64,000 nucleotides of DNA from Anaerolineae bacterium (GTDB lineage: Bacteria; Chloroflexota; Anaerolineae; CG2-30-64-16): contig JAXGQB010000015.1 of assembly GCA_040766655.1 (NCBI GenBank), positions 45,624 to 109,623 on the forward strand, written 5' to 3'. Made by a program: the position numbers and the translations under genes. The first letter of the stretch is position 1. Each line of letters opens with the position of its first letter. Under the pieces are notes generated by a model. The model had not been told where the DNA came from, did not search any database, and saw nothing but the letters and a program-made list of their open reading frames with translations. Positions 3,220 to 6,481 of this stretch are shown here, piece after piece.

Positions 3220-4016
3220 AGCAACTGAGCGTGCAGGATCTCGCCTTCGCCTTCCATCGCGACCGGCCGGTGCTCCGGGGCGTCAGCTTTGCGGTGGCGG
3301 CCAACGAGGTGGTCTACGTGTTGGGGCCCAATGGCTCGGGCAAGAGCACGCTGTTCAACTGCCTGAGCGGCGTCTATGCGCCTGATGCCGGCCGGGTGTT
3401 GTTGGATGGCACGGACCTGACCGACATGGCGGCCCGGCGCCGCGCCCACCATATCGGCCTGGTGCCCCAGAACCACGCGGCCGCGTTCGCGTACTCGGCG
3501 CGCGACATGGTGTTGATGGGCCGAGCGCCGCATCTGGGGCTCTTCGAGACACCGGGCCGCGCGGATGTGGCGGCCGCCGATGCTGCCCTCCACGCGGTGG
3601 GCCTCAGCCACCTGGCCGAGCGGCCCTTCAACGAACTGAGCGGCGGAGAGCGGAGGCTGGTGACCATCGCGCGCGGCCTGGCTCAGGAGTCGGACGTGCT
3701 GCTGCTGGATGAGCCGGATGCCTATCTCGATCCGAAGAACCAGCACCTGGTGCAGGAGACGATCGTGGGCCTGGCCCGGCAGGGCCGCGCCTTCCTCATC
3801 AGCTCGCACTCGCCCAACAATGCGCTGCTCTATGGCGACCGCGCGCTCGTGCTCAAAGATGGGCAGGTGGCTGCGGATGGGCGGCCGCAAGAGGTGCTCA
3901 CGGCCGAGATGCTTTCGGCCGCGTACGACGCGCAGATGGAGATCATCTACGAGTCGAACAACGGCGGCCGGCACGCGCGCGCGGTGCTGCCGGTGCGCCG
4001 GGATGTCTCCCGTTAG
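3216..4016 (+). CDS. ABC transporter ATP-binding protein (FecE/BtuD-like)
   Basis: Walker A GPNGSGKST, signature LSGGERR, Walker B LLLLDEPDAYLD. The ATG at 3216 overlaps the permease stop (ATGA); GTG at 3207 is an alternative start. Confidence 0.85.
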   Translation: MKQLSVQDLAFAFHRDRPVLRGVSFAVAANEVVYVLGPNGSGKSTLFNCLSGVYAPDAGRVLLDGTDLTDMAARRRAHHIGLVPQNHAAAFAYSARDMVLMGRAPHLGLFETPGRADVAAADAALHAVGLSHLAERPFNELSGGERRLVTIARGLAQESDVLLLDEPDAYLDPKNQHLVQETIVGLARQGRAFLISSHSPNNALLYGDRALVLKDGQVAADGRPQEVLTAEMLSAAYDAQMEIIYESNNGGRHARAVLPVRRDVSR

Positions 4017-4038
4017 AACCCCAGGCCGCGTTCCTTGA
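4014..4038. repeat. Left copy of a perfect 25-bp direct repeat, TAGAACCCCAGGCCGCGTTCCTTGA
   Basis: Identical 25-mer at 5772-5796. Its first three bases are the stop codon of the ABC ATPase gene. Confidence 0.9.
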
Positions 4039-4123
4039 CATTATCGCAATCGAAGGTTTGCGCATACGCAACCCCAGCAACCCTTGGTTGGCGCAAATCG
4101 TTGTCAGATTGCTCCTGGTATGA

Positions 4124-4140
4124 TATTATGCTGCATAATA
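4124..4140. promoter_or_regulatory. 17-bp perfect palindrome TATTATGC-T-GCATAATA just upstream of abiEi; candidate operator overlapping -10-like hexamers
   Basis: Read directly: 8-bp arms around one central base. TATGAT (4119-4124) and CATAAT (4134-4139) flank or overlap it. A second small inverted repeat, TTGCG-CATA-CGCAA, sits at 4058-4071. Confidence 0.35.
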
Positions 4141-4158
4141 CTCCATCCTGGTGCTATT

Positions 4159-4986
4159 ATGATGACGCAAACTATCACAGGCCTCTCCCCGCGCGAGGCC
4201 GAATTTCTTTCCCGCTTGGCTGCGGAGAACCGCGCCATCTTCCGCTACGCCGAGGTGGCCGATTACTGGCCTGATTCCGCCACAGCGCATCGGGCGCTCA
4301 GTCGGTTACAGCGCGGCGGCTGGCTGAAGCGCATCGAGCGCGGCCTCTACATGCTCGTGCCGCTCAACGCCGGCCCCGATCGGGTGTGGACCGAAAACGC
4401 ATTGGTGATCGGCACGCGCCTTGTTGAACCGAGTGCCATCGCGTACTGGTCGGCATTACGCTTCTGGAACTTTACCGAGCAGGTGCCGCAGACGATCTTC
4501 GTGCAGTCAACACGCCGCAAACTGCAATCCAGGCTGATCCTGGACGGCGTTCAGTACCAACTCGTGACCATCCGCGTACCGCGCTTTTTCGGCCTGGTGC
4601 GCCGTACGGTGGATGGGCAGCCCCTCCAGGTGACCGATCGCGCAAAGACGGTTGTAGATGCGGCTGATCGGCCCGATTTGTGCGGCGGCATCTGGCAGTT
4701 GGCGCAGGCGCTGCGCGATCACTGGGCCGAGGTGGATTGGCCCAAGCTAGACGAGTACCTGATCCGCTTTGCATCCGGCGCCGTGTACAAACGCCTGGGC
4801 TACCTGGTGGAGACGCTGAATCTGCCGATTGTCGAGCGGGCCGAGCGCCTGGCAAGCTGGCAGACTCATCTCACCGCCGGCATTGCGCTGCTCGATCCGG
4901 GCGAGAGCACCGGCGGCTCCGCATGCATGCGCTGGCGCGTCTGCGACAACATCAGTTTGGCGCCAGCTGCAGGAGGCCCACGATGA
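4159..4986 (+). CDS. AbiEi-like antitoxin / transcriptional regulator (type IV TA)
   Basis: N-terminal wHTH-like LSPREAEFLSRLAAENRAIFRYAEVADYW and GLYMLVPLNAGPDRVW resemble the AbiEi/COG5340 family. Its stop overlaps the next start (ATGA at 4983-4986). Confidence 0.65.
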   Translation: MMTQTITGLSPREAEFLSRLAAENRAIFRYAEVADYWPDSATAHRALSRLQRGGWLKRIERGLYMLVPLNAGPDRVWTENALVIGTRLVEPSAIAYWSALRFWNFTEQVPQTIFVQSTRRKLQSRLILDGVQYQLVTIRVPRFFGLVRRTVDGQPLQVTDRAKTVVDAADRPDLCGGIWQLAQALRDHWAEVDWPKLDEYLIRFASGAVYKRLGYLVETLNLPIVERAERLASWQTHLTAGIALLDPGESTGGSACMRWRVCDNISLAPAAGGPR

Positions 4987-5594
4987 TTGGCGAGGCCGAG
5001 TTGCGGCGACATGCTGTTGCTGCAGGTGTAGACACCATGGTCCAAGATCTCGACTATGGGCTGGAATCGTATCAGGCCCGAGTGTACTATCGTGGACCGC
5101 TGCGGTGGGGTGGTCCACCCCGTGCGATTCAACTCGACGTGAGTCGCGGCGAACCTCTGCTTTTCCCAATCACAATGCGCGCGTTGCACCATACCTACTC
5201 TGACGCGAACCAACTGCCACCCGTCGCTATTCCGTGCTACGACCTTGCTGAGATGCTCACGGAGAAACTGCGCGCTATTTCAGGCCAGCGCCGATTTGCA
5301 GTCTCACGCGATATCTACGACATCCATCAACTGATCGGCCAGGGCGTTTCCCTCGCAGCTATACGCCAGGCGCTGCCGGCAAAGCTGGCGGCCAAAGGCC
5401 TGCCGCCCGACAGAATCTCAGCAGCCGGCCTGGCACAACGCCGGGCTGTCTTCGAGACCGACTGGGAGCATCGCCTGGCGCACCTCTTGCCTCCTCAACA
5501 ACCGGTGACCTTCGACGCGGCGTGGCAGAGCGTGGTGAAACTGGTCGCTGCGCTGGAGCCTCTGGATGCAGACTCAATCGGTGGCTCCAGGTGA
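4983..5594 (+). CDS. AbiEii/AbiGii (DUF1814) toxin-family protein, short form apparently lacking the nucleotidyltransferase core
   Basis: 203 aa. The opening AAGVDTMVQDLDYGL resembles the family N-terminus, and YYRGPL...AIQLDVSRGE...LAEMLTEKLRAI resembles the family C-terminal part. I cannot find the GGT(A/S)L and SEDLDF-type motifs expected between them. Confidence 0.55.
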   Translation: MIGEAELRRHAVAAGVDTMVQDLDYGLESYQARVYYRGPLRWGGPPRAIQLDVSRGEPLLFPITMRALHHTYSDANQLPPVAIPCYDLAEMLTEKLRAISGQRRFAVSRDIYDIHQLIGQGVSLAAIRQALPAKLAAKGLPPDRISAAGLAQRRAVFETDWEHRLAHLLPPQQPVTFDAAWQSVVKLVAALEPLDADSIGGSR

Positions 5595-5658
5595 CGATGC
5601 ATTTCGCACCCAAGATGGCCGTGCAAGGTGCGGGAGAATACTGTTTCAGCCCGCGCCG

Positions 5659-5739
5659 GTCGAGCTTCCCGAACCCGTCATCTGGATGTTACTTGGTGGC
5701 GGGGTGGCAGCGTTGGCAGGATATGCGCGGCGGCGCAGG
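5659..5739 (+). other. Orphan PEP-CTERM-like coding tail (VELPEPVIWMLLGGGVAALAGYARRRR) without an upstream secreted domain
   Basis: In the 5566-5796 ORF: a PEP motif, a hydrophobic helix and an Arg cluster. It closely parallels the C-terminus of the DUF11 protein (PEPGTWLMLGTGLAGMAGYARMR). Confidence 0.3.
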
Positions 5740-5770
5740 TCGCTTGACGCGCTGAGACATGTCGATTGTC

Positions 5771-6481
5771 CTAGAACCCCAGGCCGCGTTCCTTGAGGCT
5801 GACCCAGCGCTGCTGGCCGATGACCAGGTGATCGAGCACGTCGATGTTGAGCAACTTGCCGGCCTCGACGATCTGGCGCGTGACGTGCACGTCCTCGGGC
5901 GAGGGGGTGGGATCGCCGGAGGGATGGTTGTGCGCCACGATGACCGCGGCCGCGTTCATGCGGATGGCCTCGCGGAACAGCTCGCCCACGCGCACGACCG
6001 CAGCATTGACCGAGCCGACGTACACCGTGTGGATCTTCAGCACGTGATTCTTGCTGTCCATGATCACGGTGCGCAGGTGCTCCTGCTCCAGCGGCGCCAT
6101 GTCCAGCATGAGCAGGTTGGCCGCGTCCGCGGGCGACTTCACGGTGGGGCGCTCATGCGGCGCGGCCACGAGCAGGCGCTTGCCCACCTCCAGGCCCGCC
6201 TTCAGCTCGATCGCCTTCACAGGGCCCATTCCCTTGACGGTGACCAGTTCCTCGACGGTCGCCTGGACCAGGCCTGCGAGGCCGCCGAAGCGGGTGAGCA
6301 GTCGCTGGGCGAGCATGATGACGTTCTCGTCGTGGCTGCCGGTCCGCAGGATGATGGCGAGCAATTCCGCGGTGCTGACGGCCGCCGGTCCATAGTGCAG
6401 CAGCCGTTCGCGCGGGCGTTCGCCTTCGGGGAGCTCTTTGATCGTCGGGTAGTACTCGGTGCGGGCTTCGTTGAGAGGCAT
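5771..6481 (-). CDS. radC: RadC-family JAB-domain protein
   Basis: [21 protein letters not shown] motif and an N-terminal HhH-like [13 protein letters not shown]. Confidence 0.9.
5772..5796. repeat. Right copy of the 25-bp direct repeat (the last codons and stop of radC on the minus strand)
   Basis: Identical to 4014-4038. Confidence 0.9.

Follow-up and report, generated by a model that had tools for sequence, protein, structure and literature searches.

How did a toxin-antitoxin operon without any integrase come to lie between two identical copies of the 3' end of radC, and why is it missing from the same place in closely related strains? The locus occupies positions 4014-5796 of a stretch of 64,000 nucleotides, referred to below as the window, which corresponds to C7:45624-109623 in a 4.99-Mb metagenome-assembled genome (MAG) of an Anaerolineales bacterium (75 contigs, 88% complete, 4.5% contamination, with at least one contig, C60, from a variant strain). 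Positions are those of the window unless a contig is named. The locus is a small, integrase-less genomic islet, consisting of an AbiE type IV toxin-antitoxin (TA) cassette with its own promoter and two gene scraps. We give a probability of roughly one half to the view that its flanking repeat was made by site-specific integration of a larger element that has since decayed.

The islet is bracketed by a 25-mer, TAGAACCCCAGGCCGCGTTCCTTGA, the two copies of which show 0 mismatches. A search of the window with up to 3 mismatches allowed recovered both copies where a first-pass annotation of the DNA had reported them and found no third site. Two matches to the 25-mer occurred in 0 of 100 shuffles. 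The whole assembly contains just these two copies, both in the window, which rules out a dispersed repeat, an objection that the annotation had raised against its own proposal. The spacer between them (4039-5771, 1733 bp) is single-copy in the genome. As had been claimed, the left copy opens with the stop codon of an ABC transporter ATPase gene, which is the last gene of an operon comprising padR, binding-protein, FecCD-permease and ATPase genes (neighbours annotated as Peripla_BP_2, FecCD and PadR). Since the orphan left repeat also serves as the stop of this gene, both flanking genes are intact. The right copy is indeed the end of radC, the orthologues of which are 83-93% identical within the genus, but its extent had been given as eight codons plus stop, whereas only the last seven codons (KERGLGF) are contained in full, together with two of the three stop bases and two bases of codon eight. 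The AT-rich start ascribed to the intervening DNA is reflected in a GC content of 0.525 at 4001-4200. The islet otherwise ranges from 0.56 to 0.66 and the flanks from 0.66 to 0.73, a difference in line with foreign DNA.

Contigs of the same species were collected by exact-protein look-up with the RadC sequence of the window, then with AbiEi and two ATPase alleles; the flanks of those found through radC are 98.4-99.8% identical to the window. In nine same-species contigs from several studies the site is empty and reads ..CCCGT TAGAACCCCAGGCCGCGTTCCTTGA GGCTGACC.., which is a convergent ATPase/radC junction where the two genes overlap by 4 nt and the 25-mer stands once, in the left-hand context of the orphan copy of the window. 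The empty junction with overlapping stops that had been predicted from the window is present there letter for letter. In 16 same-species contigs, the window being additional to these, the site is occupied. The islet is a presence/absence polymorphism, and the empty allele, with exactly one repeat copy, is the product of recombination between the repeats. It was found on two left-flank haplotypes (GATATC and GATGTC), and one ATPase protein allele is paired with both the empty and the occupied state. The strains are mosaics of patches that are dense in single-nucleotide polymorphisms (SNPs) and patches free of them, so that independent losses are not countable and the low diversity of the islet has no dating value. 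A low SNP density in the islet was also considered as a sign of recent spread and discarded, as SNPs are patchy everywhere and the SNP-free tract extends about 450 bp past both repeats. On one contig of the species (L148; European Nucleotide Archive (ENA) ERZ747220, NODE_3734), a ribosomal-protein/rpoA operon, a UbiA gene and an S4 fragment precede radC and abiEii instead of DUF3467; this arrangement is a rearrangement or a chimeric assembly. The source of the window is itself a MAG with the contamination and the variant-strain contig mentioned above, which might suggest an assembly artefact or a chance repeat. The chance of this is practically negligible, given that the same structure recurs in 16 independent assemblies of several studies and in a sister species, and given the outcome of the shuffles.

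Table 1. Features of the islet and its flanks in the window, followed by related abiE cassettes of other genomes.
Feature	Position	Strand	Basis or remark	Flanking repeat
ABC transporter ATPase, left flank	3207..4016	+	open reading frame (ORF); Pfam ABC_tran 6e-33	
Left 25-bp copy, orphan radC 3' end	4014..4038		first three bases are the TAG stop of the ATPase gene	
RHS/YD-repeat gene scrap	4040..4082	-	43 nt, 86% identical to an RHS_repeat ORF of relative G017; reads ..VAYAQTFDCDN	
abiE promoter, TTGTCA, 17 nt, TATTAT	4101-4129	+	promoter scan	
7+1+7 palindrome ATTATGCTGCATAAT, overlapping the abiE promoter	4125-4139	+	read from sequence	
abiEi, 275 aa, antitoxin/autorepressor, intact	4159..4986	+	PADLOC AbiEi 1.1e-68; Pfam AbiEi_4	
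abiEii remnant, 203 aa	4983..5594	+	Pfam profile positions 95-237 of 238; PADLOC 108-257 of 260	
Orphan PEP-CTERM sorting-signal scrap VELPEPVIWMLLGGGVAALAGYARRRRS	5659..5742	+	tblastn to other PEP-CTERM tails of the genome	
Right 25-bp copy, functional radC 3' end	5772..5796		sequence match and ORF	
radC, 236 aa, right flank	5771..6481	-	Pfam RadC 8e-42, UPF0758_N 8e-29	
abiE cassette between gatC and M1 peptidase				none
abiE cassette beside insertion sequence (IS) elements				none
abiE cassette after complete cytochrome c552 gene			only the 1.78-kb cassette between the copies	174 bp, 98.9% identical; last 164 nt of the gene plus 10 nt
abiE cassette after complete comM				~750-bp partial comM copy, 89.5% identical

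The content of the islet (Table 1) agrees with the earlier description: PADLOC, Pfam and tblastn searches recovered abiEi, a shortened abiEii and a PEP-CTERM-like remnant, and neither an integrase nor a transposase appears among its ORFs and Pfam matches. In the region, no Rfam match to an RNA gene or riboswitch at E<=0.1 and no terminator-like site was found. The PADLOC match of AbiEi spans residues 9-266; AbiEi_4 lies above its cut-off, the C-terminal domain AbiEi_1 with 19.3 bits below it, and the identical protein is encoded on 15 public contigs. By analogy with the operon studied by Dy et al. (2014, PMC3985639), the palindrome ATTATGCTGCATAAT is likely to be the AbiEi operator. The two genes overlap by 4 nt (ATGA), the bicistronic arrangement of AbiE.

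Alignment with intact homologues of 290 aa and 293 aa revealed that abiEii has lost 87 codons in frame. The junction is at about 5053-5065, and the deletion lies between two 13-nt imperfect repeats, GA(C/A)TATGG(G/C)CT(G/T)G, both of which encode (D/E)YGL. The lost codons include FKGGTCLRKCYFADYRFSEDLDF with FKGG..x15..DLD, nucleotidyltransferase motifs I and II, so the remnant lacks the pattern hG[G/S]x15DhD; motifs III (KLxAaxxR) and IV (+DxxD) are kept as EKLRAISGQRR and SRDIYD. Intact motifs I and II are present in the sister species and in G047. Mutation of either motif I or motif II abolishes GTP binding and toxicity of AbiEii (Dy et al. 2014, PMC3985639). Because the deletion removes both motifs, the toxin is presumably dead, and the AbiE module of the window is predicted to be one that cannot act as a toxin or in phage defence. 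The deleted form is found in every occupied contig on which abiEii is complete, and one occupied strain (L142) has in addition a premature stop and two substitutions in the left repeat.

The age of the insertion can be judged from the sister species (G005, contigs L160-L165), which is the nearest other member of the genus, has a 93% identical radC and carries the same islet at the same place. In the G005 assembly the islet is split over contigs C20 and C431 (L042, L024) with an 8-nt overlap, and it was confirmed on contiguous public contigs. The assembly break falls exactly where the abiEii deletion of the window begins; intact and deleted abiEii variants may co-occur in the G005 sample. The sister species has an intact abiEii of 290 aa and a repeat of 21 bp, and all six of its radC contigs are occupied. 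The PEP-CTERM scrap is absent from its islet, 51 unrelated bp standing there instead in the alignment with G005. A 7-bp inverted repeat, CAATCGA, by the islet ends is not kept in the sister species and was treated as chance. The two species have both junctions in common, ATTATC.. on the left and ..TGTCC on the right, and flanks and islet are equally diverged (about 91-93% identical), so that there was a single insertion predating the species split. By this comparison the insertion is shown to be older than the separation from the sister species (about 92% identity) and hence is not recent.

In five other members of the genus examined, neither abiE nor this ATPase lies beside radC, other genes being found downstream of it, and no extra copy of the radC end occurs within 8 kb. 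Orthologues of the ATPase operon in other lineages, found in metagenomes, stand in unrelated contexts. An empty site was found within the species of the window only, and the variation that segregates today is most simply read as loss of the islet. The simplest history is thus an ancestral insertion, followed by death of the toxin in the species of the window and by precise loss of the islet in part of that species. From the 9 of 25 contigs that are empty here, against 0 of 6 in the sister species, we infer that toxin death made the loss of the islet tolerable.

A comparison of the repeats between the two species reveals exchange between the copies. The non-coding arm adjoining the left repeat is only 74% identical between the species. 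The left repeat differs between them at two of 21 positions, and both differences are synonymous radC changes of the right repeat (A11, C15). Independent drift would not produce such a pattern, but a short gene conversion from one copy to the other, or two of them, would; the same pairing of the repeats, resolved with a crossover, gives the empty allele. Correction of the copies is not continuous, since the left copy of L142 has drifted. The polymorphism could also be read as that of an islet still mobile, with a recombinase encoded elsewhere or a host enzyme excising it and re-inserting it at the radC end, so that the two alleles would be two states of one active, cis-mobilisable cassette; the hypothetical circle junction would then read ..GTCGATTGTCC + 25-mer + CATTATCGCAATCG... 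The occurrence of both states on the same ATPase allele and of the empty one on two flank haplotypes, the identity of left and right copies within each species despite the 26% divergence of the adjoining non-coding arm, and 22 recombinase matches in the genome would suit this idea. We regard it as quite improbable, as the genome holds no other core copy and no related element, the islet sits at one locus only in two species, and in one strain 2 nt of drift in the left copy have stayed uncorrected. To explain the data, a repeat-mediated deletion and no more than two brief gene conversions suffice, and the strains are mosaic by ordinary recombination.

The same repeat sequences bear on the proposal of a target-site duplication through staggered cuts by a transposase-like or casposase-like enzyme. 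In its favour, the repeat is derived from the target, and that of each species has the radC substitutions of that species. This origin is nevertheless very improbable: the two species share no conserved terminal inverted repeats, neither a transposase nor Cas1 is present, and the duplicated length varies, with 21 and 25 bp at radC and 174 or about 750 bp at the sister loci described below. Moreover, the common junctions indicate one ancestral event and not two. An element dependent on Xer/dif was rejected on inspection of the 25-mer. Modules of the type integrative mobile element exploiting Xer (IMEX) and pdif modules are flanked by 28-bp sites in which a 6-bp spacer separates two partly palindromic arms; here TAGAACCCCAG and TTCCTTGA do not form an inverted pair, and the site is a gene end and not dif.

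The islet is not the only addition at this gene end. In the variant-strain contig C60 (5.2 kb; 5248 bp), padR is immediately preceded, on its upstream side, by 41 nt left over from a radC 3' end. This remnant matches the radC end at 36 of 41 positions with a 1-nt deletion, reads RWVSLKER and has a stop of the TGA type, as in other members of the genus. Its first 17 nt are kept at C7:35663-35679, where synteny with other genus members stops; beyond that point C7 and G005 have 10.3 kb of metabolic genes and then padR. As the ABC operon block is bracketed by copies of the radC end, at least two additions have occurred at this site, the newest nearest to radC. C60 corresponds to C7:29959-35679 followed by window 379-1075; it is 99.7% identical to C7 over 3 kb and 87-90% identical thereafter, and lacks both the 10.3-kb metabolic block and a 1.2-kb segment with a beta-ketoacyl synthase gene (C7:33015-34224). 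The 10.3-kb block left of padR was considered as a mobile element and rejected, since it consists of genes for metabolic enzymes, none of which is a mobility gene, and its right end lacks a repeat. About 370 bp at window 79-452, which separate padR from a divergently transcribed gene of the aldehyde oxidase/xanthine dehydrogenase-like type, have a lower GC content (0.52-0.56), and the part 379-423 is conserved in C60 and G005.

At other radC loci, further insertions and neighbours were observed. In relative G012, which has radC without abiE, the complete radC is separated from a partial copy of the gene by an island of 8.6 kb that contains a large serine recombinase. The island lies at 1768-11461 of L149 (G012:C6:573000-587000), with the recombinase at 7814-9052 and a pentapeptide-repeat protein; in the partial copy, 289 bp are 99% identical and 144 bp are 95% identical. 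In L150 (G029:C10:24000-32500, 2264-6840), a 3.9-kb insert splits radC near codon 190 and encodes a group II intron reverse transcriptase/maturase/HNH protein that is interrupted by an IS256-family (Mutator) transposase. In L151 (G037:C1:1093000-1108000, about 6200-12960), a large CRISPR array with the repeat GTTTCAATCCCACGCTGGTTCGATTGAGGC lies just downstream of radC.

The abiE cassette itself is more widespread than its radC location. Close AbiEi homologues number 532 at E<=1e-60. Those with 76-89% identity occur in other Anaerolineae in unrelated contexts; the cassettes of other genera are 79-88% identical at the protein level, and homology to the window spans only the region from the promoter (start at 4091-4122) to the end of abiEii. 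Two of these cassettes repeat the layout at radC, namely a complete gene, the cassette and an orphan copy (Table 1): those at comM and cytochrome c552 (L187/L188, ENA ERZ25039503 and ERZ25039462; L191, ERZ25039603; AbiEi 89% and 76% identical), the cytochrome c552 locus being on record with only one contig. A further abiE copy at 4191-7005 of L043 (G002:C5:294000-304000), with an 85% identical AbiEi and an abiEii truncated at its C-terminal end, adjoins a Mutator-family transposase gene. A phage origin was rejected, as neither the 25-mer core nor a relative of AbiEi was found in IMG/VR viral contigs.

These cassettes lead to an explanation without att site or integrase, namely homology-assisted insertion. 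A circle with a short radC segment could have entered by a Campbell-type single crossover, or homology-facilitated illegitimate recombination could have been anchored in radC. The orphan copy would then be of arbitrary length, selection would keep those insertions that leave both overlapping genes intact, and the TA module would afterwards guard the unstable repeat-flanked structure from deletion. In keeping with this, the same layout exists at cytochrome c552, where the repeat measures 174 bp, and at comM, where it reaches about 750 bp with 89.5% identity, so that repeat length is not fixed. The older radC remnant of 41 nt, with 88% identity and a 1-nt indel, is as expected if the resident end and the incoming one came from different lineages; the left junction lies inside the RHS gene scrap, an arbitrary-looking breakpoint; no recombinase is near, and the termini of the cassette are not conserved. 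In the empty site, ATPase and radC overlap by 4 nt. Because of this overlap only an insertion with duplication keeps both genes whole, and selection alone would enrich such events. Against the proposal, 21-25 bp are at or below the usual minimum for a RecA-type crossover, and two additions at the same few bases, together with a recombinase-bearing island at radC in a relative, look site-specific. The illegitimate route moreover requires a donor that already had the cassette beside the same gene, and long repeats are not exclusive to this model, since integrase-borne elements such as phage 21 and e14 in icd also carry long replacement gene ends. We consider homology-assisted insertion a possibility to be taken seriously, although a tentative one. 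A related and more far-reaching idea is that in this Anaerolineales lineage abiE cassettes, and with them further blocks that have no integrase (the ABC operon, for instance), enter beside the end of a gene through a process in which a stretch of that gene, of variable length, is duplicated (21-25 bp at radC, 174 bp at cytochrome c552, about 750 bp at comM), be it an undescribed cassette-level mobility or a recombinase acting in trans at the radC end, with the repeats kept identical by continuing exchange; this we think unlikely.

Site-specific integration of a larger element remains the reading that we favour. The element would most likely have integrated into the 3' end of radC, where insertion exactly at the stop would have regenerated the last codons of the gene (the right repeat), and the displaced or duplicated end would have stayed behind as an orphan (the left repeat), supplying the stop of the converging ATPase gene. 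It would then have decayed to an addictive TA module, a remnant resembling a cis-mobilizable element (CIME), with the repeats as its former attL and attR. In the species of the window, the in-frame deletion between the 13-nt imperfect repeats then presumably killed the toxin, and after toxin death the islet is being lost precisely through the 25-bp repeats. The position at a gene end that restores radC, the repeated use of the same gene end and the recombinase-bearing island of G012 at radC speak for a site-specific origin. Integrative elements are known to decay to att-flanked remnants (Guedon et al. 2017, PMC5704250), and features of such CIME-like remnants are found here: close relatives have an empty site with a single copy, and neither integrase nor transfer genes lie inside the islet.

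Several observations weigh against site-specific integration. Neither the islet nor the adjoining 16 kb on its left side contains an integrase or other recombinase. The search for a recombinase acting in trans, which the first-pass annotation had suggested, gave 19 tyrosine and 3 serine recombinase matches in the genome, with none on the contig of the window among the matches listed. No further core copy, and hence no sibling element, occurs in the genome, an absence that is not proof in a MAG of 88% completeness. A homologue of the G012 recombinase is absent from this genome, and no integrase adjoins radC across 40 relatives among the matches listed. Neither the genome nor the relatives yielded a cognate element that bears an integrase and has this att core; among the relatives only G012, with its different architecture, has a serine recombinase at radC. 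The islet has no recognisable element backbone, only scraps. The gene copies of 174 bp and about 750 bp that flank the sister cassettes, with little but the cassette between them, differ from what a fixed att core predicts and suit homology-assisted insertion, or the replacement of a gene end, no less well than an att core; other copies of the cassette have no flanking repeat whatsoever. Of the duplication of an att site by a very small non-autonomous or decayed element, as first suggested, an inserted and decayed islet with a duplicated radC end is retained; an att core made by a site-specific recombinase is not borne out, with no integrase nearby and no second core.

As a natural example, the locus illustrates the life cycle of a selfish TA module, from arrival at a gene end through decay to an addictive pair and death of the toxin to precise loss, the stages being spread over two sister species and 25 strain contigs. 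It also identifies the radC 3' end as a place that varies recurrently in Anaerolineales. The repeated position of abiE cassettes between a gene and its partial copy raises the question whether an integrase is needed for islets of this type in the first place. The islet leaves what is understood of AbiE and of genomic islands unchanged, and its general interest is modest.

Among known systems, members of the Tn554 family in staphylococci and Listeria insert within radC by means of their own recombinases and without target duplication, so that the likeness is limited to radC as the target gene. The staphylococcal cassette chromosome (SCC) and pseudo-SCC elements devoid of cassette chromosome recombinase (ccr) genes occupy the 3' end of rlmH (orfX) in staphylococci, with short direct repeats, in tandem arrays and with some members lacking a recombinase. 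The islet shares with them the 3' end of a housekeeping gene, the short flanking direct repeats, the tandem arrangement and the existence of recombinase-less members; it differs in that no Ccr-type recombinase is linked to the radC site in this genome. Prophage 21 and the defective e14 of E. coli insert into the 3' part of icd and bring a replacement end, the orphan staying on the far side. Here, too, the gene is kept intact with an orphan end beyond, and the 174-bp cytochrome c552 copy is close to the length of the icd replacement; however, those elements retain an integrase, whereas the islet consists of a TA cassette only and its radC duplication measures just 25 bp.

The CIMEs and the tandem accretion described for streptococcal integrative and conjugative elements (ICEs) as well as integrative and mobilizable elements (IMEs) (PMC5704250) resemble the islet in the lack of integration and transfer genes and in the older remnant further out, like successive elements at one gene end. 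In contrast to them, the islet could be matched with neither a cognate ICE or IME nor an integrase or a sibling att site, the repeat is a putative att site only, and the host is an uncultured Anaerolineales bacterium. With the AbiE systems characterised by Dy et al. (2014, PMC3985639), which are reported there to stabilise mobile elements, the cassette has in common the bicistronic ATGA overlap, the N-terminal winged helix-turn-helix of AbiEi (COG5340), the DUF1814 protein AbiEii and the promoter palindrome; it departs from them in the deletion of toxin motifs I and II, the intact form being found in the sister species. The locus is a decayed, repeat-flanked and TA-carrying islet at the 3' end of a gene, and as such belongs to an already known kind.

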